Virus record (IMG/VR): IMGVR_UViG_3300023174_007844
Location: 1 to 64,000 of that record
DNA length: 64,000 nt
Direction: 5' to 3' (one strand)
Source of the DNA: a virus
Shown: positions 8,420 to 63,445 of the stretch, in pieces
Position numbering within the stretch: the stretch's first letter is position 1
Layout of the letters: each line of letters begins with the position of its first letter
Program-made: the position numbers and the translations under genes
Notes under the pieces: model-generated
The model's input: only the letters and a program-made list of their open reading frames with translations
Told to the model about the DNA's origin: nothing
Database searches by the model: none

Positions 8420-8447
8420 AAGGTAGAAAAATCAACTCTTTGGAAAG
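8420..8447 (+). promoter_or_regulatory. Putative phage late promoter (AAGG-N18-GGAAAG)
   Basis: Member of the fixed-spacing motif family found upstream of leader-bearing genes. Confidence 0.45.
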
Positions 8448-8478
8448 TAATAGTATCATTTTAGTTTAGGTCGTAAAA

Positions 8479-9150
8479 ATGAATAAATTTCAAAAATTAG
8501 CTCAATTAAATAGAGACATTGAATTATTGGAAAAAGCTGGCAAAATTAAAGCAGCAAATATTCTACATGAAAAGTTTGTCAAGGAATCTCAATTGGCAAT
8601 TTCAACTCCTGTGCAAACAACAGTGCCTGTAGCTTACAGTGCGATGGCTTACAGACCAATGCCGGTTGCTCAGCCAGCAGTAAGAATGCCAAATGCACCA
8701 GTGGTAACTGCACCAGCTGCACCAGTGGCAGTTATGCCAACTCCTGGAGCTGCAGCTCTTCAGCAACAAGTAGTGCCTAATTCAGTCCCTGCGCCTTCAC
8801 CTGGTGCCACAACTCCTCCAATTAAATATGAAGCTCCACCAGTTGCTAAGCCCCAACCACAAGTTACACCCCCACCCACACCCACTCCAACAGAAGGTGG
8901 TAATTACAATATGATACCTGGGCCTGGAAAAACTACAATTTTTACAGATCCATCAACTGGAAATAATGTAGATCCCCCTGGCAGCGAAGATTTGTTTAAT
9001 ACTTTTTACGAACAATTGCAAGATGCTAACAAATATCCAGAACCTCAAAGAAGTCAATATTTAAAGTTCTTATATGGCAAAATTAATAAATTTAAATCCA
9101 AGTTAGGCAATAGATTGCATAGCAGTTTATTTGATGTGTATTTAGGATAA
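8479..9150 (+). CDS. Leader-bearing Pro/Ala-rich protein (putative virion cargo)
   Basis: N-terminal LEKAGKIKAANIL...KESQ leader followed by a low-complexity P/A/Q/T region. Confidence 0.75.
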   Translation: MNKFQKLAQLNRDIELLEKAGKIKAANILHEKFVKESQLAISTPVQTTVPVAYSAMAYRPMPVAQPAVRMPNAPVVTAPAAPVAVMPTPGAAALQQQVVPNSVPAPSPGATTPPIKYEAPPVAKPQPQVTPPPTPTPTEGGNYNMIPGPGKTTIFTDPSTGNNVDPPGSEDLFNTFYEQLQDANKYPEPQRSQYLKFLYGKINKFKSKLGNRLHSSLFDVYLG

Positions 9151-9845
9151 TGAGTATTTTTCAAAAGTTATCACAAATTAATAAAGACATTGAATTATTA
9201 GAAGCCTTTGGTGATATTAAGTCAGCAAATATTCTTCATAATAAATTCTTAAAAGTCTCTCAAGAGCTTATTTCTGAACAAGTAAAATCTCGTAAAGATT
9301 TGATGAAAGAAATATTTTTATTAGCCCAAAATCCAAATAATGATTTTGAAAAATTAGTTAGATGGTATGAAAACGATCCAGGTCGATATTCTGAAGAAGA
9401 CAGAGAATATATTGACAGAGCTATAGAAAAAGCTTCTGAACAAAGAAATATGGGCAAATTTACAACTGTCATAAATCCAGATAATCCAACTTTGCGTGAT
9501 GATTCGGATAGTAGAGATAATGGCGATAGCAACAGAAATGATGAAAGAATTGTAAAGGTTGATACAAATAAACCATCAAAATCAAAAAAGCCTATTCTTG
9601 ATAAAAGAGAGCAAGGTTATGTATACAGAAGAATTGTTGGTCAAATCAAAGATTTACTTAGAATTGTAAAAAGAAAACACGATAAAGGATATCCTGAAAT
9701 TGCTTATATTTTCAAAGAAAAAGCTGATAAGTTAGCAAATGATTATAGTGATTTTTTTGACGATCCAAAAAGTCAACATAATTTCATAACACAAGTAAAT
9801 AGAATCTATAATGACTTTTCTGAAACAAGTCCTTTGTCTCATTAA
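9150..9845 (+). CDS. Leader-bearing protein (putative virion cargo)
   Basis: First ~38 aa nearly identical to the 8479 ORF (FQKLxQxNxDIELLExxGxIKxANILHxKFxKxSQ); remainder unrelated; TAATG coupling. Confidence 0.75.
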   Translation: MSIFQKLSQINKDIELLEAFGDIKSANILHNKFLKVSQELISEQVKSRKDLMKEIFLLAQNPNNDFEKLVRWYENDPGRYSEEDREYIDRAIEKASEQRNMGKFTTVINPDNPTLRDDSDSRDNGDSNRNDERIVKVDTNKPSKSKKPILDKREQGYVYRRIVGQIKDLLRIVKRKHDKGYPEIAYIFKEKADKLANDYSDFFDDPKSQHNFITQVNRIYNDFSETSPLSH

Positions 9846-9873
9846 AAAAATCCCCTCGAAAGAGGGGATTTTT
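9845..9873. terminator. Bidirectional terminator between convergent genes
   Basis: AAAAAAATCCCCTC-gaaa-GAGGGGATTTTT. Confidence 0.9.
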
Positions 9874-9875
9874 AT

Positions 9876-11084
9876 TTAGTCTAGCATTTGTTTTGCAGCA
9901 ACATCAAAATCAATGCCACCATCATCATCTTCATCTAAATCTTCAGTAGATGGACCTTTGCTAATTGCTTCAATGAGATCAGTTAGTGGTTTGCCAATTA
10001 CTTTCAATCTTCCGCAAATAAACTCAAATGCTGTAGTAGACATATCATTTCTGGTACGCTTTTCTGGTGCTGGTTGATCCATTAGCATTTTGCAAAATTC
10101 ATATGCATCTTTTGACTCAACAACTTCTCCAGTATCAGTGTTCGTATAAATAAATTTCTTACGAACTTCCTTGATATATTCAAATCCTTTAGCTTTAGCC
10201 TTGTAAAGAAATTCGTCTACAGGATTAGTAGTTTCATCATCAGTGAACATAATCTTAAATTCACCAGTGACACCAGGCTGACCATATCGTGTCTTCATAA
10301 CAAGAACTTTGCTCTTGCCACCAATTACGACATCTTTGCCTTCAGCATCTTTCTTGGTGACCTGTCCAGCTGCACCATTGATCTTGTTGATCCAAAGACG
10401 CATATGAGTAAAGTAATTCATAGCATTACCGCCAGAAGCAGTTTTAACCATTGAACCAGGCATTGCACCACTACCCATATAAAGCTGATTGATAAGAACA
10501 ACAATAGTTCCAGATGCAGCAGTCTTTGCAGTCAAATCTTTTGTAAGACGCTTTACAAAACGTGCGTGGAGACCAATTGTTTGAACTTGCTCAAGAGATT
10601 TTTCAAGTTCATCATTAGGAATCATTGCTGAAATTGAGTCAACAACAATAACGCCATAATCTCCAGTCTCAACCATATACTTAAGAAGTTCACCATACTT
10701 TTCAGCAGAGCCAACATTCTCAATAAGTAAAAGTTGACCTGTGTTTACACCACAAGACAAAGCACGTTGAGGATAGTATGAATTCTCAATATTGAAGAAT
10801 GCACACTTCTTGCCAAGTTTTTGAGCTTCGGCCATCAACTTATAGCCAAGCCAAGTCTTACCAGATTGAGATTCACCACAAAACTCAATTAAAGTACCAG
10901 ATGGAATACCCATACCAGCACCAAGAATTGAGTCAACTTCAAAGACACCTGTAGGAACAAATTCAATATTCTCTACATCACCGGACTTGATACACTTTTC
11001 ATCAATTCCAAGTGCTTTAAGTTTTGCCTTTAATAAACGCTCTTGATCTTTATCAATTGCTTCGTTCAGTTCTTTTCTAGCCAT
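9876..11084 (-). CDS. recA: RecA/UvsX-type recombinase
   Basis: PTGVFEVDSILG, Walker A GESQSGKT, IVVDSISAM, LINQL, TASGGNAM. Confidence 0.93.
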   Translation of the reverse strand: MARKELNEAIDKDQERLLKAKLKALGIDEKCIKSGDVENIEFVPTGVFEVDSILGAGMGIPSGTLIEFCGESQSGKTWLGYKLMAEAQKLGKKCAFFNIENSYYPQRALSCGVNTGQLLLIENVGSAEKYGELLKYMVETGDYGVIVVDSISAMIPNDELEKSLEQVQTIGLHARFVKRLTKDLTAKTAASGTIVVLINQLYMGSGAMPGSMVKTASGGNAMNYFTHMRLWINKINGAAGQVTKKDAEGKDVVIGGKSKVLVMKTRYGQPGVTGEFKIMFTDDETTNPVDEFLYKAKAKGFEYIKEVRKKFIYTNTDTGEVVESKDAYEFCKMLMDQPAPEKRTRNDMSTTAFEFICGRLKVIGKPLTDLIEAISKGPSTEDLDEDDDGGIDFDVAAKQMLD

Positions 11085-11095
11085 AATTTATCCTC

Positions 11096-11123
11096 AAAAA
11101 GGGATGGATTGCTCCATCCCTTC
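11096..11123 (-). terminator. Intrinsic terminator after the SSB-like gene
   Basis: Minus strand AGAAGGGATGGA-gcaa-TCCATCCCTTTTT. Confidence 0.75.
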
Positions 11124-11129
11124 TATCAA

Positions 11130-12137: not shown

Positions 12138-12228
12138 TTTATATTTTCTCCAATTGGGCTCTTCCGTCCCACATTTTTTAGTTTACTGTATGTTTTGTGC
12201 TGAAGCAATAGAGAATTCAAAACTTTTG

Positions 12229-12975: not shown

Positions 12976-12983
12976 AATATTTC

Positions 12984-28075: not shown

Positions 28076-28127
28076 TGTTAAACCCTCCAAGGAATAACGT
28101 TAAACTAGGTTTAATATTCTAGATATA

Positions 28128-28155
28128 AAGGGCTGAAAACTCCTAAAAAAGAAAA
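28128..28155 (+). promoter_or_regulatory. Putative phage late promoter (AAGG-N18-AGAAAA)
   Basis: Fixed 18-nt spacing; upstream of the 28186-32526 operon. Confidence 0.55.
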
Positions 28156-28185
28156 GTAATCATATCTCTAATTTGGATCTCATTT

Positions 28186-33871: not shown

Positions 33872-34561
33872 ATGAAAACAATTTTTTTAAGCCCATCAGA
33901 TCTAGCATTTTTACTAGATGATAGTCCTTGGGGATTTTATCAGAAGTATAATCTAGGCATCAAGCGGCCTCCAGTAATTATTCCACGTATCTTTACAGTA
34001 ATAGATGTTCTTACTAAAGTTTGCTGTGAAGACAAGAATATGAAGGAATTAAATTCATCTTTTCCTGATGCAATTCTCACTGGAGCAGATCAATGGGTGA
34101 AAAGTAAGCCTATCGTAAATCCAGATTTTCCTGATGTCGAAATAATCCTTCGTGGAAAAATTGATGGTGTATTAAAATTTGCTGATGGATCTCATTCTGT
34201 CATCGATTTTAAAACTTGTGAAATTCAAGAAAAAACTTTGCAGAAATATGTCCGTCAATTATCTTGCTACAGTTATGCTATGGCAAATCCAAATTCTGCA
34301 TCAGACTATTCTGTCAAAATTAATGACAAAATTGGTTTATTTGTATATGAACCAAATAAGTTTTCCATTGCTGAAGATGGATCTGCCAATTTGGGTGGAA
34401 AGCTTAAATACATTGAATACGATCTTGATTTAGATGCGTTTGCAGAATTTATCAAGAAAGAAGTGATTCCTCTAATTGCTGGCAAAGAACCACCGCCAAC
34501 AGATGATGATCCTTGTTGGGTGTATATAAAACAATTTGGATTTGAATACGAGGAAGATTAA
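33872..34561 (+). CDS. PD-(D/E)xK RecB-like exonuclease
   Basis: LSPS, LRGKIDG, VIDFKT, QLSCY. Confidence 0.85.
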   Translation: MKTIFLSPSDLAFLLDDSPWGFYQKYNLGIKRPPVIIPRIFTVIDVLTKVCCEDKNMKELNSSFPDAILTGADQWVKSKPIVNPDFPDVEIILRGKIDGVLKFADGSHSVIDFKTCEIQEKTLQKYVRQLSCYSYAMANPNSASDYSVKINDKIGLFVYEPNKFSIAEDGSANLGGKLKYIEYDLDLDAFAEFIKKEVIPLIAGKEPPPTDDDPCWVYIKQFGFEYEED

Positions 34562-34577
34562 AAACTGTATCAGAATA
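34550..34577 (+). promoter_or_regulatory. Putative phage late promoter (GAGG-N18-AGAATA)
   Basis: Fixed spacing; the AGAATA box lies in the left arm of a perfect inverted repeat (34569-34606). Confidence 0.55.
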
Positions 34578-34616
34578 CTAAACAATAATAAGTTTAGTAT
34601 TCTGATTTTTTTAACT

Positions 34617-35567
34617 ATGAGAAAAAACATATCTACCTATAATCACAAGAAATTTGCTCAGTCTTCTAGTAATACAAAAGCAACGTTAGCTAGATTAACT
34701 AATCCAGACTACATCAAGTCATTGTTGTTGCAACCAAATCTTGGTGACACATTTGCATATTTGTCATTTAGATATGTATTTAGTGACAATGAATTAAATA
34801 TCAAAGATAAAACAGAATTTGATAAAAAAATTTACACCAAAGATAATGTTGATAAATACATAAGATTTCTTGATGTTTTAAATAAAAAAATAAGATTCAC
34901 CGGAAGAGACAAAACAAGATTTGACAAAGGTATAGCTGCAGCTAAAGAACTTATAAACACAAAACTTAAGCAAGTAACTAATACAACTCCATCACAACCA
35001 CAACAACAAGGCGGATCTACAGTTGTTCCTGCAGGTTATGCAGCTCAACAAGTGCAAATAACACCTGAACAAGCCAATAAGCATTTAGGTGTCGTAATTC
35101 CTACATTAATAACACTTTCAAAAGATAAAGAAAAAATAAGAGCATTTATATCAAGATATTCAATTGAAATTGACGATATTTTGTATGCAATGAATATTTT
35201 GAGAACAGATGCTAAGTATTATGGACAATATAATTCATATAACAAAGATTTATCTGAATTGTCTAAAATTTATTATGATTCTATGTTCCCTGCAGGATGG
35301 TCAGTTGCTGGAAATTCTGTTTTTGTTCATGATGATAGAACCGTGGCCAATGAAATTTTGAAATTAATTCCAGAAGCAAAAACTAAGGGTGATGCTTTTA
35401 CTAAAGCAAATGAAAAAATTAAAATTTTCCAAAATGAATTTCTCGATAAAAACCCCGGAAACACTGATATAGCGGAAATTGCCAATAAAATAAATAAAGA
35501 AATAGACAAATTTAATGGCGACAAAGTAAATGCAGAAAAGATGGGGCGACTTACAAGACTAAAATAA
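34617..35567 (+). CDS. Leader-bearing protein (YNHKKFAQ), putative virion cargo
   Basis: ATG 34617 preferred; N-terminal MRKNISTYNHKKFAQ. Confidence 0.7.
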   Translation: MRKNISTYNHKKFAQSSSNTKATLARLTNPDYIKSLLLQPNLGDTFAYLSFRYVFSDNELNIKDKTEFDKKIYTKDNVDKYIRFLDVLNKKIRFTGRDKTRFDKGIAAAKELINTKLKQVTNTTPSQPQQQGGSTVVPAGYAAQQVQITPEQANKHLGVVIPTLITLSKDKEKIRAFISRYSIEIDDILYAMNILRTDAKYYGQYNSYNKDLSELSKIYYDSMFPAGWSVAGNSVFVHDDRTVANEILKLIPEAKTKGDAFTKANEKIKIFQNEFLDKNPGNTDIAEIANKINKEIDKFNGDKVNAEKMGRLTRLK

Positions 35568-35594
35568 AGGGCAATTTTTAATAATTGTTAAAAT
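35567..35594 (+). promoter_or_regulatory. Putative phage late promoter (AAGG-N18-TAAAAT), ATG 8 nt downstream
   Basis: Fixed spacing; leaderless geometry. Confidence 0.55.
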
Positions 35595-35602
35595 AGAAAA
35601 TT

Positions 35603-36499
35603 ATGTTTACAAAAGAATTTATTAAAATTAGTAAAGTGCTTGATGAATATGGTTTACATAGACAAGCTGATAATTTATTGAAAATTGCCCAACTTGCTAC
35701 TGATCCAAAAAAATTTTATGGACCTACACAAACAGATACAGTAAAGATTAATCCTGATGATTTTGTTAATTATAAAAGTTTAGTATCAACAAAAACAGAT
35801 CTTCAAAATAAAATAAATAGCTTAAAAAAGGGTGATAATACAGATAAAAATGTAGCTCTCAGTTTAGCAACCGAATTAACAAATTCATATAAAAATAATA
35901 AAATAGATTATTCTTCATACAAAAAACTAATTCAAGACTTAAATTCAAAAGCAAAAGCAAATGATTACAAAATACAAGATGCAGTTGCTATTGGCCCAAT
36001 TAATCCACGAGCTTATCCTGATCCAAGCACAATAAATGAAACAGCTTCGCAAGGTCGTGGTAGAACTCAAAATCCTGACGGATCTTTCACTGATCAGAAT
36101 ATACCTATCCAGCTTGCTTCACCTTTTGAAGGAGTAACAGGCAAAGGAGAAACAGCTTTTCCAAATAGAGAGTACAGAAACTTACCTGAATTACAAAAAG
36201 ATTGGAATGATTATTTTACAAAGCCTGAATTCAAAAATTCAATACAACAAAGAATTGATGAGATACAAGCAAATGATATAAAGAATAATACAAAAACTGA
36301 CACAAGCAAATTAAAAGCGTTGTTAGATAAATCAAATTCTCCAGATGGATTGCAAGTGGGTGATTTTGGAAATGCTGAAGAAACAACCGTGTGTGATAGT
36401 ACAGGGAAGTGTGAAAAAGTGAAATATGCGCCAAATAATACATTGCCTACACAAATTTATGGCACAGAATCTAATCCAACTTTTAAGCCTAACAGATAA
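35603..36499 (+). CDS. Leader-bearing protein (LDEYGLHRQAD...KIAQ), putative virion cargo
   Basis: Long-class leader followed by an unrelated body. Confidence 0.75.
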   Translation: MFTKEFIKISKVLDEYGLHRQADNLLKIAQLATDPKKFYGPTQTDTVKINPDDFVNYKSLVSTKTDLQNKINSLKKGDNTDKNVALSLATELTNSYKNNKIDYSSYKKLIQDLNSKAKANDYKIQDAVAIGPINPRAYPDPSTINETASQGRGRTQNPDGSFTDQNIPIQLASPFEGVTGKGETAFPNREYRNLPELQKDWNDYFTKPEFKNSIQQRIDEIQANDIKNNTKTDTSKLKALLDKSNSPDGLQVGDFGNAEETTVCDSTGKCEKVKYAPNNTLPTQIYGTESNPTFKPNR

Positions 36500-36503: not shown

Positions 36504-36695
36504 ATGCCAAAACCATTACATGATTTAGTAGATAAATTATTAGATAATCCTGATTTTTATCCAGAAAAATCTAAAGATGATAGAGAATCTACAGCTTGGG
36601 CAATTGCATATTCAGATTATAATAAAAATAAGAAAAGAAAAAAGAAATCATTTAATTTAAAAGAATATCGTACAGCACAAAAACCAGATCAATAG
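36504..36695 (+). CDS. Small ChaB-like basic protein
   Basis: ATG 36504; MPKPL...RESTAWAIAYSDY resembles ChaB; C-terminal SFNLKEYRTAQ. Confidence 0.55.
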   Translation: MPKPLHDLVDKLLDNPDFYPEKSKDDRESTAWAIAYSDYNKNKKRKKKSFNLKEYRTAQKPDQ

Positions 36696-36707
36696 ATCTG
36701 GTTTTTT
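36679..36707 (+). terminator. Intrinsic terminator
   Basis: AAAAACCAGATC-aata-GATCTGGTTTTTT. Confidence 0.8.
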
Positions 36708-36722
36708 ATTTATAATAGTTTT

Positions 36723-37430
36723 ATGACAAAACTATCGCTTATTATGCTTACAAACACTGTAAATAGTGATATTTACAGGATGACACAAAATGCATTAGAT
36801 TCTCTTCATAATTCCATTGGATCTGAGAATTTTAATGTAGTGTTGGTGGAATCAAACAAAGATAGAGAATGGGATTATCGTCATGTAAACTTTTATCTTA
36901 AACCGCCAATTGATTTTAATTACAATACATACTTAAATATAGCAATTGAAAACTGTGATTCTGAATATATTGGGATTGTAAATAATGATGTAAATTTCCA
37001 TAAAGATTGGTGGGTCAAAATGGAAGCAGCTATGATTAAGCATGAACTTGACACAGCTTCTCCTAGATCACCCACTGAACAAAATGGAATTGTTCCAAGA
37101 GCTGAGATTAAACACAGATTTACTCCTGAAACTATGGTGAGAGTGGGATTTGAACTTATCATTAATTTTTGTGGATGGTGTTGGATTATGAAGAAAGAAG
37201 TGAAGGATTGGCTCTTTCCCTTAGATGAACAATTTGCTTTCTTTTTCCAAGACAACGATATTATTATGAGATTACAAGAAAAAGGCTGCAAACATGGAAT
37301 GGTTGCAGCTTCAAAGGTAGATCATTATGGGCAAAAATCTCATGGAACATTCAAGGATCAAGAAGAATACATGAAAAATACATTTGCTTTAGAAAAGAAT
37401 TTTATAGAAAAATGGAGGCATCGAATGTGA
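36723..37430 (+). CDS. Glycosyltransferase family 2-like
   Basis: VVLVES, FNYNTYLN, VNNDV (DxD-like), LDEQF...QDND, VDH. Confidence 0.8.
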   Translation: MTKLSLIMLTNTVNSDIYRMTQNALDSLHNSIGSENFNVVLVESNKDREWDYRHVNFYLKPPIDFNYNTYLNIAIENCDSEYIGIVNNDVNFHKDWWVKMEAAMIKHELDTASPRSPTEQNGIVPRAEIKHRFTPETMVRVGFELIINFCGWCWIMKKEVKDWLFPLDEQFAFFFQDNDIIMRLQEKGCKHGMVAASKVDHYGQKSHGTFKDQEEYMKNTFALEKNFIEKWRHRM

Positions 37431-38965: not shown

Positions 38966-39436
38966 TTATTCTGGGACAATTAGCTTCTCATATGTTTCAA
39001 AAAATTCCTGAGAAGCAATCCTGTACACTTCAAGATAATTTGGAGAAGGTGAAACAATATAATCTCCAGGCTTTAATGACATTAATCTGCCCCATTTTGC
39101 TACAAATTCAAGTTCAGAACCATAATATCTACAAGCAAGAATCTTACCTTTTGGGATGTAAATTGCACCTTGTTCATAATAATAGAAAAATTTATATCTA
39201 CTAAACAACATATCAGAAGGAACGATATATTCTTCTTGACATTCTGTTTGTAAATTTTTCACTACAAAATCGCCTTCTTTTGCATAATTTGTAGTTTCCA
39301 ATCCATCAGCGGTCCAAGTTTCTATATATTGATTTAATTGGGCAGGATAAGCATAAATTAAACAAGTTTTAAAATACTCTTGTCCATTGTCTCTTATTTC
39401 AGGAAAAAAATAAGAGTATGCTTCATCTTGTGTCAT
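38966..39436 (-). CDS. PGDYG-like hypothetical protein
   Basis: Two internal repeats: AKEGDFVV...F..RY and LKPGDYIV...FFETY. Confidence 0.55.
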   Translation of the reverse strand: MTQDEAYSYFFPEIRDNGQEYFKTCLIYAYPAQLNQYIETWTADGLETTNYAKEGDFVVKNLQTECQEEYIVPSDMLFSRYKFFYYYEQGAIYIPKGKILACRYYGSELEFVAKWGRLMSLKPGDYIVSPSPNYLEVYRIASQEFFETYEKLIVPE

Positions 39437-40281
39437 CAGGATTCAAGCATTTGTTCGATATTGAAAAGATTAGTTCCGATATCTCTTAGATTGGTATATA
39501 TTTCTGTTAGCTTTTTTACTTGTTCTTCAGGAAGATTATTAGGATTTTCAGCAGTGTTTACCATACGATAATTTTCATCATAATTGCTTTTGACATCCCC
39601 AATTACAGAGGATATAAAACTTTGCATATCATCTAATTTTCTAGAAATTTCATCTACATTTAATTCTGATAATTTAGAAATTACTTCAGAATATTGATCA
39701 GATGACGTGCCAGATTCATCTCCTAATTCAACTTCTGACCCTCTTCTAATATCTAATTCATCGCGGGTTATATCGTTTTTCTTAAGCCAATCTAATTGTT
39801 GTCTGGTAGGATTTGTGTAAATAGTTGCATTAGCTCTACCATTATTCAAGTTTATTCTCATAGCACCAGTGAGTTCAGAAAGTACGTGTCTATCAGATCT
39901 ATCTTTCAATGCTTCTGGATTTACACCTAATCTTGATAGTAAGTATTTATCAAACATTACGTGAGATCTTAAATTAGGAGTGACAGAACCATCAGGCATT
40001 ACGTAAAATGCTTCATATGGTGTGCTAAAATGTGTGTGGGTTTCTCTTGATCCACTTACCCAAGGACTAGATTGATCAAATTCAGACATAATTTTAGAAA
40101 TTTCTGAATTGATAGCTGCAACCATTTCTTGTTCAGATCCATACTTTTCAATTAATTTTCTTTTGATTGTATCTGCATCATCAGTTGATGGATCTATATA
40201 AGATTTAGAACGAAGCTCATTTTGAATAATTTGTTCTGCTTCTTCTTTGGAAATCGCTTGTTTAATAAATGAATACCACAT
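39436..40281 (-). CDS. MWY-leader protein (putative virion cargo)
   Basis: ATG 40281 gives MWYSFIKQA; late-type motif ends 8 nt upstream. Confidence 0.7.
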   Translation of the reverse strand: MWYSFIKQAISKEEAEQIIQNELRSKSYIDPSTDDADTIKRKLIEKYGSEQEMVAAINSEISKIMSEFDQSSPWVSGSRETHTHFSTPYEAFYVMPDGSVTPNLRSHVMFDKYLLSRLGVNPEALKDRSDRHVLSELTGAMRINLNNGRANATIYTNPTRQQLDWLKKNDITRDELDIRRGSEVELGDESGTSSDQYSEVISKLSELNVDEISRKLDDMQSFISSVIGDVKSNYDENYRMVNTAENPNNLPEEQVKKLTEIYTNLRDIGTNLFNIEQMLES

Positions 40282-40289
40282 ACCAATAA

Positions 40290-40317
40290 TATACTGGAAG
40301 AAATAAAAAAGACCCTG
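40290..40317 (-). promoter_or_regulatory. Putative phage late promoter (CAGG-N18-AGTATA) overlapping a terminator
   Basis: Fixed spacing; CAGG lies in the 3' arm of AAGACTCTGA-ataa-TCAGGGTCTTTTTT. Confidence 0.5.
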
Positions 40318-40318
40318 A

Positions 40319-40873
40319 TTATTCAGAGTCTTGATTGAAATCAAACTTTTGCTGTCCAGATATCAAACTATCTAATTTTTCACTAGTATCACAGCCATAA
40401 TTCATAATATTCTTAAAAGATTGGATTTCTTTACTTGACAAATCTAAATTGAAATGCTTTATTGCTACTTTGATATTTTCTTCCATTTCGTCAGGTGTAA
40501 ATATCGAATTGTGAATAGCAAACATTCCACTATCAATTCCTAAGCTATAAGATTCAGGACCAAAATTAAACTTATAATAAAGCAAATGTCTATAAGATCC
40601 ACCTTCTTTATAATAATTTTCAAAAATCATATTAGTGATATGGAAAAATAATAACAATTGATTATCTGTTTCTAAAGATTCAAAATATTCTTTAGCTTTT
40701 TGCTTGTATTCTTCTATAGCTTTTATTTCCATCTCAAAAAATTCTTTATATTCTTCAGAGTTCAAATAGTCAGTAAATGATTTATAACTTTTTCCATTTA
40801 TATCTGGCATTGGATTACCTGTACTTTCTCGTATTGAATCTTCTTTGCGTTGTCTAATTTCTTCCCAAGTCAT
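40319..40873 (-). CDS. Hypothetical protein
   Basis: 184 aa in a minus-strand operon. Confidence 0.7.
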   Translation of the reverse strand: MTWEEIRQRKEDSIRESTGNPMPDINGKSYKSFTDYLNSEEYKEFFEMEIKAIEEYKQKAKEYFESLETDNQLLLFFHITNMIFENYYKEGGSYRHLLYYKFNFGPESYSLGIDSGMFAIHNSIFTPDEMEENIKVAIKHFNLDLSSKEIQSFKNIMNYGCDTSEKLDSLISGQQKFDFNQDSE

Positions 40874-41546: not shown

Positions 41547-41741
41547 TTATCGCTCATTTTCTTCTTTATTGGCTATATCGTAATAATTCATACCATTACG
41601 TAAGCACCAAACTGAAAGAGCGCCTAAAAGAAAATCTGATGGCAATGTCCCAGTGGTTTTCCATACATGAGTTATAGCTACCAGAGCAACTACATACCAA
41701 AGTAAACCTGCAGCCTTGTTGTTGTCAATTTTATCTTGCAT
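41547..41741 (-). CDS. Small membrane protein
   Basis: Two hydrophobic segments; TATAAT-N7-ATG. Confidence 0.65.
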   Translation of the reverse strand: MQDKIDNNKAAGLLWYVVALVAITHVWKTTGTLPSDFLLGALSVWCLRNGMNYYDIANKEENER

Positions 41742-41758
41742 AATATTTATTATATCAT

Positions 41759-41788
41759 AAAAAAAGAAGGCTGTAAAGCCTTCTTTTT
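41759..41788. terminator. Bidirectional-type terminator
   Basis: AAAAAAGAAGGCT-gtaa-AGCCTTCTTTTT. Confidence 0.85.
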
Positions 41789-44669: not shown

Positions 44670-45201
44670 CTTTTATGTCCTGTTGATGTTTATCCACTTC
44701 TGCCACAACATCAACACTTTCCCAATCATCAGCAATTAAATCTAAATAAATAAGCTTGCCGTATCTAGCATATTTACCAACACCCCAATCAGGATGCCAA
44801 CTTTTACGTCTGATTGTTTTTCCGGCATTTAAATCATCCAATACATCTTTGAATAATTTATTTGGAACCACAACCCAATCTTCAGCAAAAAGATCTTCAG
44901 TGGTGATTGTAGATTCTGCGTGATCATATTTTTTAGGAAATAATGTAAGACTAGGGTTGCCTTCTCTTGACATCATTTTGCCATGCCCTAACATTTTGAT
45001 AGCCCAATTGATATCTCTCTTAAGCTCGATATTATTCACCTTAAGAAAACTATCAAAATTACTTCCAATATGCTTGTTCTCTAAAGCATAAGGCAAATAA
45101 TCTTCACCTGGATCGATATAATTCATAGCTGCCTTATTCAATTTTGCTTTTTTAATTTCGACATCATAAAAATATTTTTGATTTTTAGGTAATTTATCCA
45201 T
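44656..45201 (-). CDS. Tandem DUF2829/Tad2-like protein with an antitoxin-like N-terminal segment
   Basis: NKHIGSNFDSFL; AIKMLGHGKMMSR...EDLFAEDW; VLDDLNAGKTIRRKSW...DLIADDW. Confidence 0.6.
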   Translation of the reverse strand: MDKLPKNQKYFYDVEIKKAKLNKAAMNYIDPGEDYLPYALENKHIGSNFDSFLKVNNIELKRDINWAIKMLGHGKMMSREGNPSLTLFPKKYDHAESTITTEDLFAEDWVVVPNKLFKDVLDDLNAGKTIRRKSWHPDWGVGKYARYGKLIYLDLIADDWESVDVVAEVDKHQQDIKDGKY

Positions 45202-45220
45202 ATCTTATAATACCATAAAA

Positions 45221-45254
45221 AAATGAACTTGTAAGAAATCCTTACAAGTTCATT
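45221..45254 (-). terminator. Intrinsic terminator after the FN3 gene
   Basis: AATGAACTTGTAAG-aaatc-CTTACAAGTTCATT with a T-tract on the minus strand. Confidence 0.8.
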
Positions 45255-48017: not shown

Positions 48018-48045
48018 TATTCTTGATTTAATAGGGTGATACTTT
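48018..48045 (-). promoter_or_regulatory. Putative phage late promoter (AAAG-N18-AGAATA)
   Basis: Fixed spacing; upstream of the FN3 gene. Confidence 0.45.
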
Positions 48046-49464: not shown

Positions 49465-49492
49465 AAAGCAAACACAACAATATAACAGAATA
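49465..49492 (+). promoter_or_regulatory. Putative phage late promoter (AAAG-N18-AGAATA)
   Basis: Fixed spacing. Confidence 0.45.
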
Positions 49493-49828: not shown

Positions 49829-49918
49829 ATGAACGACAAAGATAGAAAACGTGATGCTTTATTTGTAATCTTATATAGCATTATAGGATACTTGATTATT
49901 CTCATAGCAACAAGATAA
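49829..49918 (+). CDS. 29-aa membrane micropeptide (not in ORF track)
   Basis: SD GGAGGG; MNDKDRKRDALFVILYSIIGYLIILIATR. Confidence 0.45.
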   Translation: MNDKDRKRDALFVILYSIIGYLIILIATR

Positions 49919-49928
49919 TAATTTGTAA

Positions 49929-49956
49929 AAGGTTATAAATTATAAAATTATAAATA
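49929..49956 (+). promoter_or_regulatory. Putative phage late promoter (AAGG-N18-TAAATA), ATG 8 nt downstream
   Basis: Fixed spacing; leaderless geometry. Confidence 0.55.
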
Positions 49957-51019: not shown

Positions 51020-52210
51020 TTAGAAAAGTTTTACTTCAAAATCTTCTTCTTCAGATGAATCTCTTGGGATTGTAAAACCATATGTTTTCATAACATATTG
51101 AATTAAATTGTTTGCAATATGTTCGCCCAAATCAATCAGAGCCATGTTATAAAGTTCTTTTTTTGTTATGCCTGGTTTTATAGATCCATTGTTTTTCTTT
51201 CTTGTTAAATATTTTTCCATAGTTTCAATAGGGGTATCAAACAATTTTGCTTTTTTTCTATCAGCATCAATTTCATTTGTTAAGCGCCCTACATTTGAAC
51301 CATCTGTGCCTGTTGCCTTTGGAGCATCAGGTTTTTGTTTTCCTTTCATTAAAGCTGCCGTACCAGCAGCTGAAGCACCAGAAAAAAGCAATGCTGTAAC
51401 TGCAGGACTCATAGTTCTCTTCCAAGGTCCCATGCTATACAAATAACTTCTCATAGGAATTGTGCTGTGTTGAAGTACTTGTTCAATCATATTGTCTGTA
51501 GTGAAAGAATTGTCATACAACATTCCTCTCAATTGCCTTTCGGAAGCAATACTAGCTTTGATTTGGTTTGCATTTTCCATATTTCTTGGAATTCCATACG
51601 TACTACAAACGTGATCTATTGCTGTTTCTATAAGTGCAACATGAGCATCTCTCATCTGAACAAGTTCATTTTCTAAAGGACTTACTAATTGTTCTCTTTC
51701 TCGTGGATGAGCTTCTAACCAATCATCAATTTCATCATCAGCTAAATGATGCATTCTCTTAATTTCTTCAATTCTAGTGTCGTAAAGAGTTTTCCATCTT
51801 GCATATAACTGTGGAAATTCTTTTTGCTTAGATTGGACTTGTCTGTAAGCTGGTTGTAGAGCATTGATGATGCGATCAATTAATCTTGAATTGCTTCTAC
51901 CAACCATTGGATTATGACCACTTACATTTTTTTCATCATCTAATAATTCCAAAACTTCATCATAATCAGGTACAGTTCTCATGCGATCTATAACATTTGG
52001 ACCTCTACTTAAATCACGTACTTGTCTTCTGGCCCTCGCTGATTCATCACCAACTCCACGTATTCTGTCAACAAATCTTCTCCAACCAGTTTGAAATGGA
52101 TTTTGAGCTTCTTTGATTAAGTTGTCAATTTTGTCAGCTGATTTATAATCTCCATCACGATCAGCTTCCATAGCCAATTTTATGTACTTGTTTAATTGAT
52201 TTTCTTGCAT
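51020..52210 (-). CDS. Leader-bearing protein (putative virion cargo)
   Basis: EADRDGDYKSADKIDNLIKEAQ leader; Ala/Gly hydrophobic segment. Confidence 0.75.
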   Translation of the reverse strand: MQENQLNKYIKLAMEADRDGDYKSADKIDNLIKEAQNPFQTGWRRFVDRIRGVGDESARARRQVRDLSRGPNVIDRMRTVPDYDEVLELLDDEKNVSGHNPMVGRSNSRLIDRIINALQPAYRQVQSKQKEFPQLYARWKTLYDTRIEEIKRMHHLADDEIDDWLEAHPREREQLVSPLENELVQMRDAHVALIETAIDHVCSTYGIPRNMENANQIKASIASERQLRGMLYDNSFTTDNMIEQVLQHSTIPMRSYLYSMGPWKRTMSPAVTALLFSGASAAGTAALMKGKQKPDAPKATGTDGSNVGRLTNEIDADRKKAKLFDTPIETMEKYLTRKKNNGSIKPGITKKELYNMALIDLGEHIANNLIQYVMKTYGFTIPRDSSEEEDFEVKLF

Positions 52211-52245
52211 AATGTATAGTCCTAAAATACAAACTCTCTTATTTT

Positions 52246-52273
52246 ATATTACAGAATATTTCTAACACACCTT
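52246..52273 (-). promoter_or_regulatory. Putative phage late promoter (AAGG-N18-TAATAT)
   Basis: Fixed spacing. Confidence 0.45.
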
Positions 52274-53089: not shown

Positions 53090-53105
53090 AACCTATAGAG
53101 CATTG

Positions 53106-53137
53106 AAGCCCTATTCTATATTGAATAGGGCTTTTTT
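53106..53137 (+). terminator. Intrinsic terminator
   Basis: AAGCCCTATTC-tatatt-GAATAGGGCTTTTT. Confidence 0.8.
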
Positions 53138-53151
53138 ATTTGGGGGATCTT

Positions 53152-53391
53152 ATGAAAATTGACTTTGAAAAAATATTCTTTTACTTTATGCTAGTGATTG
53201 TTAGTGGTAGTATTGGATATGCACTCAAACCTGCAGAACCAGTTGACCAAAAAGAACTTGAAAGAAAATACCAAAATCAACAACAAGTATGTACAGCTGC
53301 TATGCATATGATGGCAGATTTTTCTAAAAAAAATTACTATCAACCCAAAACCAAAAAAGAATGGGCCATAGAAAGAATGATGAGCAGATGA
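53152..53391 (+). CDS. Small membrane-anchored protein
   Basis: N-terminal hydrophobic segment. Confidence 0.55.
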   Translation: MKIDFEKIFFYFMLVIVSGSIGYALKPAEPVDQKELERKYQNQQQVCTAAMHMMADFSKKNYYQPKTKKEWAIERMMSR

Positions 53392-53898: not shown

Positions 53899-53926
53899 AA
53901 GGGTATAATTGTATTTGATTCGAATA
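53899..53926 (+). promoter_or_regulatory. Putative late promoter (AAGG-N18-CGAATA) with an embedded TATAAT
   Basis: Both promoter types overlap upstream of the HNH gene. Confidence 0.45.
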
Positions 53927-55178: not shown

Positions 55179-55181
55179 ATT

Positions 55182-55319
55182 ATGAGTATTACATTAGCAT
55201 CTTGGATATCGGCTGGCATTATAGTTGCATCATCTACGGCATTTACTCTTTATTTTAATTATCGCTTAGATAGATTGATAAAGATGCTTGACTCTATGAT
55301 TACTGACCGACCAGAATAA
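55182..55319 (+). CDS. 45-aa membrane peptide (not in ORF track)
   Basis: MSITLASWISAGIIVASSTAFTLYFNYRLDR...; 3 nt after the previous stop. Confidence 0.5.
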   Translation: MSITLASWISAGIIVASSTAFTLYFNYRLDRLIKMLDSMITDRPE

Positions 55320-55335
55320 TTCGTATAATAATTTT

Positions 55336-55965
55336 ATGAAACTTAGTGATGTATTAGAAGAAGAATTTTTCTCTAGATCAAATTTAATTAATTATTTGAT
55401 TGGATTATATGGTTATAAGTCATATTTAGAGATTGGTGTCAATGATGGAATGAATTTTGAAAGGGTCAATTGTCCATATAAAGTTGGAGTAGATCCAGAA
55501 GACAGATATGACAAAATCACTTTCAATGTTACTTCAGATGAGTTTTTTGATCAGAATAAAGAAACATTTGATATTGTTTTTATTGATGGTTTGCATGTAT
55601 CAGGTCAAGTTATTAAGGATATCCGTAACAGCTTAGATATCTTGAATCCTAAAGGTACAATTGTGATGCATGATTGTCTTCCTGTAGCTGAGATAGTTCA
55701 AAGAGCAGAAAGAGAATCTCATCATTGGAATGGTGATGTTTGGAAAGCTTTTGCTCATTATAGGTCTGATCCAAATCTTACTATGTTTACGATTAGAACT
55801 GATCAAGGTTTAGGTGTCATAAAAAAGGGCAAACAAGAACCATTTGACTTGCCTGAAACTTTAGATTTTGAATTTTATTCTAAAAACGTTATTAATCTGA
55901 TGTCTGTTTTTGAAATTAGAGCTTCTCTTGATTTGATTGCTCAATTACATAAAAACAATTTTTAG
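55336..55965 (+). CDS. Class I SAM-dependent methyltransferase (Methyltransf_24-like)
   Basis: SYLEIGV, VGVDP, TSDEFF, FIDGLH, VMHDC, WNGDVWK. Confidence 0.85.
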   Translation: MKLSDVLEEEFFSRSNLINYLIGLYGYKSYLEIGVNDGMNFERVNCPYKVGVDPEDRYDKITFNVTSDEFFDQNKETFDIVFIDGLHVSGQVIKDIRNSLDILNPKGTIVMHDCLPVAEIVQRAERESHHWNGDVWKAFAHYRSDPNLTMFTIRTDQGLGVIKKGKQEPFDLPETLDFEFYSKNVINLMSVFEIRASLDLIAQLHKNNF

Positions 55966-56034
55966 TAAAGGCAAAAACGTTTACAATAATCAATAATAAA
56001 ATAGTTTATAAATCAACTATTGAAAGTGATTATT

Positions 56035-56343: not shown

Positions 56344-56378
56344 AATAATCCCATCGAATTCGATGGGATTATTTTTTT
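56342..56378 (+). terminator. Intrinsic terminator
   Basis: AAAATAATCCCATCG-aatt-CGATGGGATTATTTT. Confidence 0.85.
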
Positions 56379-56393
56379 AAGGTAAAATAAATT

Positions 56394-56717
56394 ATGTCTG
56401 AACGAGAATGGGTTGATAAGATAAAAAAAGAATGTGTGTTAAATGTTGGTAATTTCGACACTAAATATGCAATTCAGTTAGTTGGGAGAAGTGGTAGTAA
56501 GATTGGTATTGTTTCTCTCAATAAGCAGTTTATGAGTGTTGATATAATTGACAAGCAAAAATATGAGCGGTTTTATGATCAATTTTACTCTAGAAATAAT
56601 AAAGAATCTCGTGCTCCATTAGTTATAGATTATCATATTGAACATTCTATAGGCAGGGCTGGATTTAAGGAATTGTGGGATTTTTTTTACAAGAAAGTTA
56701 AATCTAGGGTAAAATAA
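56394..56717 (+). CDS. Hypothetical protein
   Basis: TAAAAT-N5-ATG. Confidence 0.65.
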   Translation: MSEREWVDKIKKECVLNVGNFDTKYAIQLVGRSGSKIGIVSLNKQFMSVDIIDKQKYERFYDQFYSRNNKESRAPLVIDYHIEHSIGRAGFKELWDFFYKKVKSRVK

Positions 56718-58624: not shown

Positions 58625-58652
58625 AGTTGTGGTATAATTAGAGTGTTAATAA

Positions 58653-58725: not shown

Positions 58726-58749
58726 TCAGAAAAATCTCATCCTAAACAG

Positions 58750-58777
58750 ATGGGATTTTTCTTTTTAAACCAGAATA
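58750..58777 (+). promoter_or_regulatory. Putative late promoter (ATGG-N18-AGAATA), ATG 7 nt downstream, overlapping the tRNA terminator
   Basis: Fixed spacing. Confidence 0.45.
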
Positions 58778-58784
58778 AATTATT

Positions 58785-59162
58785 ATGTGGTATCGAATTT
58801 CAGCAAAGAAAAAAGTTAGCTTAGTTATTGTATTTAATGGCGATAAAGTTTTGTTAGGTGAAAAATTGTCTGGCTATGAAATTCCTGGCGGTCATGTTGA
58901 TTATTTAGAAGATGAAAAAGATTGTGCCAGAAGAGAATTGGAAGAAGAAACTAACTTAAAGATATCTAAAATTAAACTTTTGCGCACTATGGATATGCCT
59001 GACAAAATTGTTTATGTTTATTACACTAATAATTATTCTGGTGATCTCTTAGCTGGAGATGATTTAGTAGGAGCAAGTTGGCATAAAATAAATGATTTGC
59101 CCAAAATAAAATTTAATGGTGCTGAATTAATTTCTGAAGCATACGAAAAAAGCTCCTCATAA
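58785..59162 (+). CDS. Nudix hydrolase with MWY leader
   Basis: Nudix box GGHVDYLEDEKDCARRELEEETNL; N-terminal MWYRISA. Confidence 0.9.
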   Translation: MWYRISAKKKVSLVIVFNGDKVLLGEKLSGYEIPGGHVDYLEDEKDCARRELEEETNLKISKIKLLRTMDMPDKIVYVYYTNNYSGDLLAGDDLVGASWHKINDLPKIKFNGAELISEAYEKSSS

Positions 59163-59174
59163 GGGAGCTTTTTT
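59146..59174. terminator. Bidirectional terminator
   Basis: AAAAAAGCTCCT-cata-AGGGAGCTTTTT. Confidence 0.8.
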
Positions 59175-59176
59175 AT

Positions 59177-60193: not shown

Positions 60194-60300
60194 TTAAATC
60201 CTCAAGTAAATTATACGCAGAAAAAAAATTTATTTTCTAGAATATAACACATGGAGGATATCTTAATGAAGGGAAAATTATCACCAACGGAGTTGACAAT

Positions 60301-61309: not shown

Positions 61310-61359
61310 GAAGGTTTTATACAGAGCAAATGTGAAAGCCAGTATGGGGGTGGGAAAAA

Positions 61360-61950
61360 ATGGATACTTTTTTTTGTGAATTGGGCAGTGATAAGTATAT
61401 AAGAGAAAATTTTTTTTCTGACTATCAATACAAAGGGACAATGGTTGAAGTTGGAGGGGGACATCCAGAATTATATTCAACATCAAAACATTGGATAGAC
61501 AATGGCTGGAGAGCGATCATTTTTGAACCACAACCTAAATTTTTTGAAATGCATAAAAATTTAAACAATGAAGTATATGATGTTGCAATTTCAAATGCTT
61601 GTGGTGAAGATATAGACTTTCATATTTGTAAAGATTCGATGGGTATGTCAGCTTCAGCTTTAGCACATAGAATTGGACAATACAATTTAGATCAAATAAT
61701 TAAAACTAACACTATAACTTTGGACAAAGCTTTAGATGTTATTGATGTAAATAAAATTGATATTGTAAATATAGATGTTGAAGGCTGGGAATTGGAAGTT
61801 ATGCAGGGTTTTAGCCCAGAAAAATATAATTTTCCTCTTATTGTACTTGAAAACTTTACTAGAAGTTCTTCATATATAGAGTATATGGAAAAAATTGGTT
61901 ATAAATTAATTTGGAATCTTGAATATAATTATTTATTCCAACATGAATAA
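61360..61950 (+). CDS. FkbM-family methyltransferase
   Basis: VEVGG, GWRAIIFEP, VAISN, TITLD, IDVEGWELEVMQG. Confidence 0.88.
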   Translation: MDTFFCELGSDKYIRENFFSDYQYKGTMVEVGGGHPELYSTSKHWIDNGWRAIIFEPQPKFFEMHKNLNNEVYDVAISNACGEDIDFHICKDSMGMSASALAHRIGQYNLDQIIKTNTITLDKALDVIDVNKIDIVNIDVEGWELEVMQGFSPEKYNFPLIVLENFTRSSSYIEYMEKIGYKLIWNLEYNYLFQHE

Positions 61951-61991
61951 TAATTTTGTATTGATATAAGAATAAAGGATACTATTTCCTA

Positions 61992-63077
61992 ATGTGGTAT
62001 AAAATAGCCCAGCAATTGCAACTTCCTGGTTTAGATGTAGAGCAATCTTCACCAACAACAAGAGAAAAATCTAAGCCAAGAGAAGAATCACCAGAACTTT
62101 TAGAAACTCAAAAAAATCCTCAAAGTTTATTCTTTAGTGATTGGGCTAAAGGTCATTACGTGCCAGAAGAACCTGTCTATCACGGAACAACTCACGAATT
62201 TGATAGATTTGATATTGACAAAGGTTCAATGAGTAATTATTTTGGTCCAGCATTTTATTTTACTAGTGATGAAGAAGATGCTTCAAAAAATTACACTGGT
62301 ACTGGGCCTGATCAAGAAAGAAACATTGAAAATCTTCAATATAATTTGCTTGATCAATATGATGAAGACGAATATTATCTATGGAATTTATATAGTGATG
62401 ATCCAAGATATAGTAGAGAATTCAATGAAGACGGTAAACCATATAACCCAAGTTATCTAGCAGAAAAAATTGCCAGAGATACAATTTTAGGACCCAATAA
62501 ACCTAGAGTAATTCCTGCTCACGTTAGAATGAAAAACCCAATTCATCTAACTAGTTCACAGGATGCAGAACATCCAGAAAAAGTTTTCATTGATGATATA
62601 GAAGGTAGTATGGACTTTTTAGGGAAAAGAATCAATCCTTCTGACAACCATAATTTGAGCACAGTTATATCAAAACTTCACAATATTATAGTGGACTATT
62701 GGGATTATGATATTGCTAATGAAATTTGTGAAGAATTAGTGCAAGATAATTCTGTTGGATTTGATGAAGAAATTTCAGCCTCTTCATTGATCATGGACCT
62801 AATTAAAAAATTAGAATTTTATGATAGTGATCAAGATACTCAGTTTAAAGGTGATATTGTCAAAAGATTTATTAATTCACTAGGACATGACAGTATTGTC
62901 ATGGATCCTAATCAATTTTTCAGAATGTACTCTCAAAAGAAACCAATCAAACATTACATCACCTGGAATCCAGAAAACATTAAACACGCCAGAGAAAATA
63001 TAGAGTTTGATCCAAAAAATCCTGTTATCACTGCTAAGAGTGGTAAAATTAATTTATGGAAGAATTCTTTGCTGTAG
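61992..63077 (+). CDS. ADP-ribosyltransferase-like (ART-PolyVal-type) protein with MWY leader
   Basis: VYHGT...FDRFD...FGPAFYFTSD...VIPAHVRMKNP...GHDSIV...YITWNPENIK; N-terminal MWYKIAQ. Confidence 0.7.
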   Translation: MWYKIAQQLQLPGLDVEQSSPTTREKSKPREESPELLETQKNPQSLFFSDWAKGHYVPEEPVYHGTTHEFDRFDIDKGSMSNYFGPAFYFTSDEEDASKNYTGTGPDQERNIENLQYNLLDQYDEDEYYLWNLYSDDPRYSREFNEDGKPYNPSYLAEKIARDTILGPNKPRVIPAHVRMKNPIHLTSSQDAEHPEKVFIDDIEGSMDFLGKRINPSDNHNLSTVISKLHNIIVDYWDYDIANEICEELVQDNSVGFDEEISASSLIMDLIKKLEFYDSDQDTQFKGDIVKRFINSLGHDSIVMDPNQFFRMYSQKKPIKHYITWNPENIKHARENIEFDPKNPVITAKSGKINLWKNSLL

Positions 63078-63418
63078 TTTTCATCGAATGTATGATGGAA
63101 AATAATAGATGTTTCTCTGACAAAGATTTTTATAAATTATTAAAAACCCAAAGACTAGATAAATCAAAAGTAAATTTCAATCAACTTATGCAAGCATTTT
63201 TAATTGAATTTGAATTTGATAATTATGAGATTTTAGACAATATATGGCAGCCTAAAGGATCATTTGTTTCTCATAAAGCAATTTGGAATATAATTGATGA
63301 ATTAGAGTTACATTTAGAAGTGGAAAATTCATTGGGTGGATTTTACGAAACAAGTTGTGATGTAGTACAGAAAATTAATAATTATCTTTGGTTATGCGAA
63401 AAAGAAGCCTCCCAATAA
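63056..63418 (+). CDS. Hypothetical acidic protein
   Basis: Overlaps the upstream gene and ends at a terminator. Confidence 0.55.
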   Translation: MEEFFAVVFIECMMENNRCFSDKDFYKLLKTQRLDKSKVNFNQLMQAFLIEFEFDNYEILDNIWQPKGSFVSHKAIWNIIDELELHLEVENSLGGFYETSCDVVQKINNYLWLCEKEASQ

Positions 63419-63445
63419 AGGGGGGCTTCTTTTTTTATAAGAAAC
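63418..63445 (+). promoter_or_regulatory. Putative late promoter (AAGG-N18-AGAAAC), ATG 8 nt downstream, overlapping a terminator (63399-63436)
   Basis: Fixed spacing. Confidence 0.55.

Follow-up and report, generated by a model that had tools for sequence, protein, structure and literature searches.

The window analysed here is a stretch of 64,000 nucleotides from the IMG/VR virus record IMGVR_UViG_3300023174_007844, corresponding to the opening 64 kb of a viral contig of 80,398 bp whose G+C content is 32–33%. It contains a replication module, carried mainly on the minus strand (Table 1), and otherwise mostly genes without known function together with four tRNAs. In an initial annotation, made from the sequence alone, thirteen sites of the window were proposed to represent a phage-specific class of late promoter, in which an AAGG box (box 1) is separated by 18 nt from an AGAATA box (box 2), upstream of structural genes and of genes whose products share a short N-terminal leader. 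Comparison of 12 kb with GenBank phages by megablast gave no match. Three related IMG/VR contigs are ~84–85% identical to the window contig and largely collinear with it, namely G001 (113.6 kb), G002, which is 100% identical to G001 across their overlap, and G003 (37.9 kb). G001/G002 run past the left end of the window into a head module with genes for the large terminase, the portal and a protease fusion. A distant relative, G004 (315,852 bp, 88% complete), carries orthologs at 40–73% protein identity. Since the CheckV completeness of the close contigs is 11–32%, the window contig is a fragment of a low-GC jumbo phage, and these phages form an uncultured freshwater jumbo-phage clade.

We examined the distance between the two boxes in DNA outside that used for the initial annotation, with the spacing set beforehand at 18 nt. 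G001/G002 and G003 contribute 59 upstream regions without a close ortholog in the contig; among these, three sites with at most one mismatch were found at N18, compared to a mean of 0.2 over spacings of 8–28 nt, and six compared to 1.4 when two mismatches were accepted. The 139 upstream regions of G004 contained six sites at N18 and no more than two at any other spacing, and AGG-N19-GAA occurred in this genome 9 times versus ~1.5. When 253 upstream regions were pooled (sense strand, at most one mismatch), 12 sites were observed at N18 for a mean of 1.45 elsewhere. Counted on both strands of 51 kb of intergenic DNA, the unique non-orthologous sites numbered 15 at N18 for a mean of 4.05 (Poisson P = 2e-5), and 458 kb of coding DNA, used as a control, showed a flat spacing profile with no N18 peak. 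We conclude that AAGG-N18-AGAATA is a real, spacing-specific promoter-like signal of this clade, occurring more often than by chance.

Bias also extends to columns that played no part in the selection: T and A are favoured ahead of AAGG, and T is favoured two nt upstream of box 2. The fuller motif is TAAAGG-N16-TnAGAATA. In box 1, AGG does not vary because the sites were selected for it, and the base that follows it, the fourth, is G in 8, T in 8 and A in 6 of 23 sites. Box 2 follows the consensus A-G/A-A-A-T/A-A, with the central A residues present in 22–23 of the 23 sites and G in 12. AAGG peaks 35–36 nt before start codons. Seven whole upstream regions used as nhmmer seeds retrieved orthologs only and no paralogous promoter regions, so the short boxes are all that the sites have in common.

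Footprinting against relatives at ~84% identity frequently told little, as conservation exceeds 90% across whole intergenic regions, and the distant G004 was therefore needed. Four pairs of orthologous promoters from the close group and G004 (Table 1) keep both boxes at N18, while the spacer, the length of the 5′ untranslated region (5′ UTR) and the distance to the ATG differ, with indels of at least 20 nt in the 5′ UTRs. For example, the G004 ortholog of the gene at 49965 (40% protein identity) is preceded by AAGG-N18-ATAATA with an unrelated spacer, and that of the gene starting at 52210 by AAGG-N18-AGAAAA.

The window contig taken alone gives a less favourable picture. All 13 listed sites read as they were described, and the proposed two-box motif holds in part: its sites are present, but about 5 of the 13 are weak or otherwise explained, and its statistics fail in the window while they succeed in the relatives. 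Nor is the spacer always 18 nt, as had been claimed, since 35567 fits better with N19 and 52273 with N17. With up to two mismatches, AAGG-N18-AGAATA occurs 144 times in the whole window, mostly in coding DNA, versus 115 ± 11 times in shuffled sequences, which is only 25% more; applied this loosely to the window, the motif hardly exceeds chance expectation. In the window contig, the 56 upstream regions taken in gene orientation contain 3 strict and 10 loose matches at N18 versus 4 and 10 at N24, and the 18-nt spacer is not statistically significant in this contig by itself. An unbiased dyad scan ranked AAGG-N18-AGAA (6 versus 0.4) and AGG-N19-GAA (10 versus 1.7) among the top dyads, but neither was significant after ~1e5–1e6 tests, and many of the top-ranked dyads were terminator arms. 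ATAAAGG or TAAAGGGC, considered as a repeated element, was rejected as it lies mostly in coding DNA and is not specific. Together with secondary spacing peaks at N21, N24 and N26, these figures would be compatible with A/G-rich words having clustered by chance in intergenic DNA that is rich in A and T. We give this explanation almost no credence, because the pre-specified N18 is replicated in two independent data sets (the regions specific to G001/G003, and G004) and because the orientation of the sites, their association with a class of genes, their conservation between orthologs and the flat coding control all speak against it.

The individual sites, scored with a position weight matrix (PWM), are collected in Table 1, and several are informative when compared with their relatives. 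The block TTTGTAAAAGGT at 49929 shows no change in relatives whose protein is 71% identical. The 35567 site keeps both boxes in G001, with four spacer positions changed and 1 nt lost before the ATG; in this site, AAGG and the stop codon of the preceding gene overlap. The product of this gene (35603–36499) is only 47% identical to its G001 ortholog, whereas conservation exceeds 90% in its first 30 residues, which form the leader, and in the 45 nt upstream of the gene. Promoter and leader thus behave as one conserved cassette on a fast-evolving body. The 52273 block is conserved in G001 although the 30 nt adjoining the ATG diverge. The 63418 site, in which the sequence of box 1 also forms a terminator's 3′ arm and overlaps the stop codon of the preceding gene, is conserved in G001 and G003 despite differing downstream genes. 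At 8420, AAAGG is retained in G001, and for 55968 no ortholog was found for footprinting.

At other sites, comparison with G001 and G003 indicates that box 2 is conserved and moves with the gene, while box 1 is not conserved (58750, 53899, 49465 and 48045). The gene at 58785 lies in a different context in G003, where similarity begins exactly at CCAGAATAAATT; only box 2 therefore travels with this gene. At 48045, the DNA upstream of AGAATA has diverged in G001, and AGAATAAAACAATAGCTCTC and the Shine-Dalgarno region are conserved. The 53899 site, despite the highest PWM score, has neither box conserved in G003, in which GGTATAAT within the spacer is conserved. The module at 40317 retains its terminator and box 2 in G001, but ahead of a different gene; an overlapping TATATT 6 nt before ATG 40281 also suits the sigma70-like class described below. 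The site at 34550–34577 (+) was rejected: its GAGG lies in coding DNA, and its AGAATA is the 5′ arm of a terminator at 34569–34606, a 15-bp stem followed by a T run.

Some observations around these sites deserve to be recorded. The 75 nt before the 844-aa gene (28110–28185) are ~100% identical in six contigs, in two of which the protein is only 68–69% identical; this stretch is far better conserved than coding DNA, which suggests a structured 5′ UTR or a dense regulatory region besides the promoter boxes. A small open reading frame (ORF) at 49838–49921 (MNDKDRKRDA...), with a GGAGGG Shine-Dalgarno sequence, lies inside an apparent 229-nt intergenic gap and is conserved in G001. CCAGAATAA recurs at 38966–38974 (−), 55311–55319 (+) and 58770–58778 (+); since at the first two positions it encodes the Pro-Glu-stop of the upstream ORF, some AGAATA words near starts are coding ends and not promoter boxes. 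Outside the window, the contig holds a copy of AAGG-N18-AGAATA at 78045–78072 (−), which scores 16.3 bits, lies ~410 nt from the next annotated gene beside G-rich/C-rich runs, and may mark an unannotated gene or RNA. Also beyond the window, at ~77.32–77.70 kb of the contig, a repeated element GTCAGAGTTT(N)AGGGGAGACAA precedes two adjacent minus-strand genes (starts 77313 and 77634), with a further copy in G001 near 4.85 kb.

Table 1. Motif sites, leaderless promoters, terminator modules and genes considered in this study (window coordinates unless a relative is named)
Feature	Position	Strand	Description
Replication module	505–27221		Ribonucleotide reductase, RecJ, Toprim primase, RecA, DnaE-type polymerase, DnaB helicase, AAA ATPases
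Zinc-finger sigma-like ORF	4821–5795	−	Alternative candidate reader; weak fold matches
AAGG-N18-GGAAAG (weak)	8420–8447	+	Before leader-bearing gene 8479; box 2 with three mismatches; below PWM threshold
TAAAGG-N18-AGAAAA	28128–28155	+	PWM 15.0 bits; 30 nt before ATG 28186 (844-aa gene, MFNL start)
AAGG-N19-AAAATA	35567–35595	+	7 nt before ATG 35603, leader-bearing gene; predicted leaderless; spacer within N17–19
CAGG-N18-AGTATA	40290–40317	−	8 nt before ATG 40281 (MWY gene); terminator 40332–40309 forms box 1 with its 3′ arm
Box 2 only	48018–48045	−	AGAATA(AAAC) conserved; first box AAAG not conserved
Box 2 only	49465–49492	+	CAGAATA conserved; first box AAAG is GAAG in relatives
AAGG-N18-TAAATA	49929–49956	+	PWM 13.0 bits; 8 nt before ATG 49965, leader-bearing gene
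AAGG-N17-GTAATA	52245–52273	−	Before leader-bearing gene 51020–52210; fits only with N17
AAGG-N18-CGAATA	53899–53926	+	Before HNH endonuclease gene (53946); highest PWM score, 19.5 bits; doubtful
AAGG-N18-TCAATA (weak)	55968–55995	+	39 nt before ATG 56035; box 2 with two mismatches
ATGG-N18-AGAATA	58750–58777	+	7 nt before ATG 58785 (MWY gene); box 1 formed by an arm of the terminator that follows tRNA-Arg
TAAAGG-N18-AGAAAC	63418–63445	+	PWM 13.7 bits; 8 nt before ATG 63454, leader-bearing gene
Leaderless example	36711–36725	+	Terminator, T run, TATAAT, 6 nt, ATG 36723
Same TAnnnT layout	38945(−), 41741(−), 45201(−), 55324–55338 (ATG 55336), 56394, 61980–61994 (61992)		
Terminator-to-start modules	36679–36725, 40281–40332(−), 41741–41780(−), 45201–45254(−), 53105–53154, 56350–56396, 58730–58787, 63400–63456, 11084–11125(−)		
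Ortholog promoter pairs	G1m 101119 / G004 125597; G1m 113097 / G004 137421; window 49965 / G004 65661; window 52210 / G004 60138		

The genes behind the motif were then considered as a set. Leaders were recognised by an MWY start or by A-x-x-L-D...A-D within the first 36 residues. The motif is carried by 14 of the 34 leader-bearing genes and by 19 of the 219 others (odds ratio 7.4, P = 6.6e-6). The targets without a leader, seen in G001/G002 and in their G004 orthologs, include the gene immediately behind that for the large terminase, the protease-fusion gene and two more genes of the head module, and within the replication module (505–27221) no intergenic PWM match was found. On all three points the initial annotation is borne out: it had placed the motif before leader-bearing and structural genes and had not seen it before the core replication genes. 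Its remark that the ATG may follow box 2 by 7–8 nt also proved accurate, for 10 of 33 motif-bearing genes; the overall range is 4 to 79 nt, and the remaining genes have untranslated leaders of 11–79 nt, usually with a Shine-Dalgarno sequence. On the basis of these distances, transcription is predicted to start ~7–9 nt after box 2.

These distances also bear on the idea that the motif is not a promoter recognised by a sigma factor, but the binding site of a phage transcription factor or a signal for processing or translation acting at the RNA level. The conservation of the 75-nt region around 28128 beyond what a promoter needs hints at additional functions at that place. However, two short boxes at a rigid 18-nt distance with a free spacer are the signature of sigma regions 4 and 2, a distance to the ATG as variable as 4–79 nt speaks against a signal for translation, the mode at 7–8 nt fits a transcription start at the ATG, and nhmmer found no extended similarity between sites. 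We therefore regard this explanation as highly improbable.

A second class of signals must be distinguished from the two-box motif. TAnnnT lies exactly 6 nt before the ATG at 16 genes of the contig, compared to 3–7 at neighbouring spacings, while other, non-start ATGs give a flat profile; the same peak recurs in G001/G002 (15 genes), G003 (7) and G004 (18). These boxes are often preceded by G or TG, with G enriched at both preceding positions, and they often directly follow a terminator hairpin and its T run. In upstream regions, GGTAnnnT is ~3-fold enriched versus 1.65-fold for TAnnnT alone. TAnnnT-N6-ATG is a separate sigma70-like class, predicted to give leaderless mRNAs, and it explains part of the boxes initially annotated near start codons (e.g., 40281, 61992, 36723 and 55336). 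Anchoring on TAnnnT boxes revealed no AAGG at N18. The possibility that AAGG acts as an extended −10 element before TAnnnT was set aside, as such elements were assigned to the sigma70-like class and leave the N18 peak unexplained.

Outside the window, at 78.8–79.7 kb, the contig carries three consensus promoters that are nearly identical, TTGACAGGTATA...TGATATAAT. They read TTGACA-N16-TGnTATAAT, two of the three stand 6 nt ahead of an ATG, and they are probably early promoters used by the host sigma. Sigma70/SigA-type promoters thus coexist with the two-box motif, which differs from them by its box 1 (AAGG, not TTGACA), by an 18-nt spacer counted from a 4-mer and by its gene set. Moreover, position 6 of box 2 is A, not T, in 19 of 23 sites, and position 1 is A in 16 of 23. 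A methyltransferase-like gene with a TATAAT leaderless promoter (55336–55965) is absent from G001 and G003 (region 55320–55965); in these two contigs the sequences on either side are joined without a gap at ...CCAGAATAAT / terminator, so the difference is an indel affecting a single gene cassette.

Many starts are organised in compact modules in which the hairpin and T run of an intrinsic terminator end 13–28 nt before the start codon and are followed by a −10 box or a Shine-Dalgarno sequence (Table 1). It could thus be argued that no separate class exists and that the motif is a by-product of these hairpin/T run/−10/ATG modules and of the sigma70-like leaderless promoters. AGG would then come from the hairpin's G-rich 3′ arm and box 2 from the A-rich −10 region. 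Relative to the ATG, TTTTT peaks at −22 and AGG at −35; the ATG of a dozen genes is preceded by a hairpin with its 3′ arm ending 13–28 nt away; box 1 is a hairpin arm at 40317, 58750 and 63418; and the TAnnnT peak is seen in all four genomes. Nevertheless, most replicated sites have no hairpin (28128, 49929, G1m 98671, 99698 and 101119, and most G004 sites), many lie 25–79 nt from the ATG ahead of Shine-Dalgarno leaders, the AGAATA-like box 2 lacks the T at positions 1 and 6 of a sigma70 −10 box, and the boxes are kept in orthologs while the spacers diverge. A by-product of this kind appears improbable to us.

Given that the boxes and their geometry resemble a bacterial −35/−10 pair, the sigma factors of the clade deserve a closer examination. 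No Pfam sigma domain was detected in the window contig; G001/G002 and G004 do have such domains. The five best NCBIfam matches of a 229-aa protein of G001 (85508–86197; 108.6 bits, E = 3e-31) and of a 231-aa protein of G004 (110929–111624; 116.7 bits, E = 9e-34) are all SigH models, with a nearly full-length alignment (residues 10–214 of 229). The G001 gene lies ~5 kb beyond the left end of the window contig. More than 200 close homologues, named "sporulation-specific sigma factor" by JGI, occur in metagenomes on contigs of up to 358 kb. SigH promoters have a −35 box AGGA and a −10 box GAAT separated by 17–18 nt (PMC12456013). Those of the Firmicute SigH (Spo0H; Bacillus subtilis, Clostridioides difficile, Sporomusa sphaeroides) share the geometry of the phage motif, which can be read as AGGn-N18-GAAT: the spacer is a sharp peak in three independent data sets and box 2 provides GAAT. 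The initial suggestion that the promoter is phage-specific gains support from these relatives, which encode a SigH-like sigma whose known consensus has the same geometry.

The clade also encodes two or three small sigmas of the extracytoplasmic function (ECF) type, located at G001 94357–94923 (L021:14357–14923) and at G004 114792–115355 (L043:14792–15355) and 311147–311722 (L053:11147–11722), and more than two promoter classes are therefore expected. A further candidate is the zinc-finger ORF at 4821–5795, which gave no sequence match in Pfam, PHROG, NCBIfam or PDB; its AlphaFold2 model has a mean predicted local distance difference test (pLDDT) score of 79.8, and its top Foldseek matches are sigma factors, all with E > 0.1. 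Given these weak fold matches and the lack of a sequence match, this ORF, whose G004 ortholog is 73% identical, is kept as a candidate only. ECF promoters usually have −35 boxes of the AAC type and −10 boxes of the CGT type.

From these observations we infer promoter function, the pairing of sigma and promoter, the start sites and the timing. The reading that we favour, and hold to be moderately probable from sequence comparison, is that the motif is the −35/−10 pair of promoters read by the host core RNA polymerase together with the phage-encoded SigH-like sigma, a middle or late class being the best reading of its timing. The operon of this sigma begins in G001 at GGGTAAAAT-N6-ATG, a sigma70-like leaderless promoter, which suggests a cascade: the host sigma would transcribe the SigH-like sigma operon, and the SigH-like sigma would then switch on the motif-bearing genes, i.e., most genes with shared N-terminal leaders and the head-module genes. 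With transcription starting ~7–9 nt after box 2, sites with an ATG at 7–8 nt (about one third) would yield leaderless mRNAs, and the others a 5′ UTR of 11–79 nt with a Shine-Dalgarno sequence.

Besides the statistics of the window contig given above, several points weigh against this reading. The final A of the SigH −35 box AGGA is not fixed in the phage motif, although AGG is present, and box 1 also serves as a terminator arm at several sites. The scores of the two SigH-like proteins against the equivalog models (TIGR02859 / PRK08295) are 105–117 bits for cut-offs of 208–295, and since they fall below these cut-offs the protein is called SigH-like and not SigH. The presence of its gene in the phage studied here would follow from synteny with an 85%-identical relative, the gene being outside this contig. 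The gene calls and the leader classifier are our own heuristics. Finally, other sigmas could read the motif instead: the ECF-like factors, the zinc-finger ORF or a host SigH-type sigma. The relatives do encode ECF-like sigmas, the zinc-finger ORF is conserved and its fold matches are sigma factors, and, in a Firmicute host, the cell's SigH would itself read promoters of this type. Yet a known consensus in agreement with the boxes and spacing of the motif exists for the SigH-like protein only, and ECF promoters differ as stated above; another reader is, in our opinion, unlikely.

The SigH-like sigma of this clade differs from the Firmicute SigH in several respects: it is phage-borne, with scores about half of the equivalog cut-offs, and the phage host need not be a Firmicute; the predicted regulon consists of leader-tagged and head-module genes and not of stationary-phase or sporulation genes; and about one third of the sites are predicted to be leaderless. 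T4 late promoters have no −35 box. They resemble the present motif by an A/T-rich, −10-like box before structural genes and by the use of the host core with a sigma of the phage, but the motif described here has AAGG at a fixed distance of 18 nt as part of the signal, and its box 2 is AGAATA-like and not TATAAATA. The latter sequence is present at 49949–49956, but its T is not kept in L034/L035. In group 2 jumbo phages, T4-type late promoters carry TATAAATA at −10 and are read by gp55/gp33 (PMC7824862). In the Bacillus phages SPO1 and SP10, phage sigmas (gp28 for middle genes, gp33/gp34 for late genes) form a temporal cascade that steers the polymerase core of the host to phage promoters (PMC13401047), and sporulation-like sigmas of Bacillus phages have been compared with SigF/SigG, one of them being linked to sigK-like promoters (PMC9429907). 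In all these Bacillus phages, as proposed here, a phage sigma directs the host core to two-box phage promoters; here, however, the lineage is SigH-like, the consensus boxes differ, and the system is known from sequence alone.

Phage sigma cascades as such are textbook knowledge, so the system would be a new instance and not a new principle. It extends the phage-borne sporulation-type sigmas to a SigH-like lineage that apparently serves the phage's own programme, and it offers a testable transcription code for a large, abundant and uncultured jumbo-phage clade, whose near-identical sigma genes number more than 200 in metagenomes. The motif lends itself to three uses: grouping genes of unknown function into a co-regulated set, formed by the leader-tagged proteins together with the head module; correcting start codons (e.g., 63454, 40281 and 34617); and predicting leaderless genes. 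Going further, we propose tentatively, as a serious possibility rather than a probable one, that this widespread clade captured a SigH-type sigma and placed in one regulon the head-module genes and tens of otherwise unrelated leader-peptide proteins, one third of the regulon being leaderless. The proteins with shared short N-terminal leaders are putative capsid cargo. If this holds true, a promoter code, a peptide-address code and leaderless translation would be joined in one phage programme.

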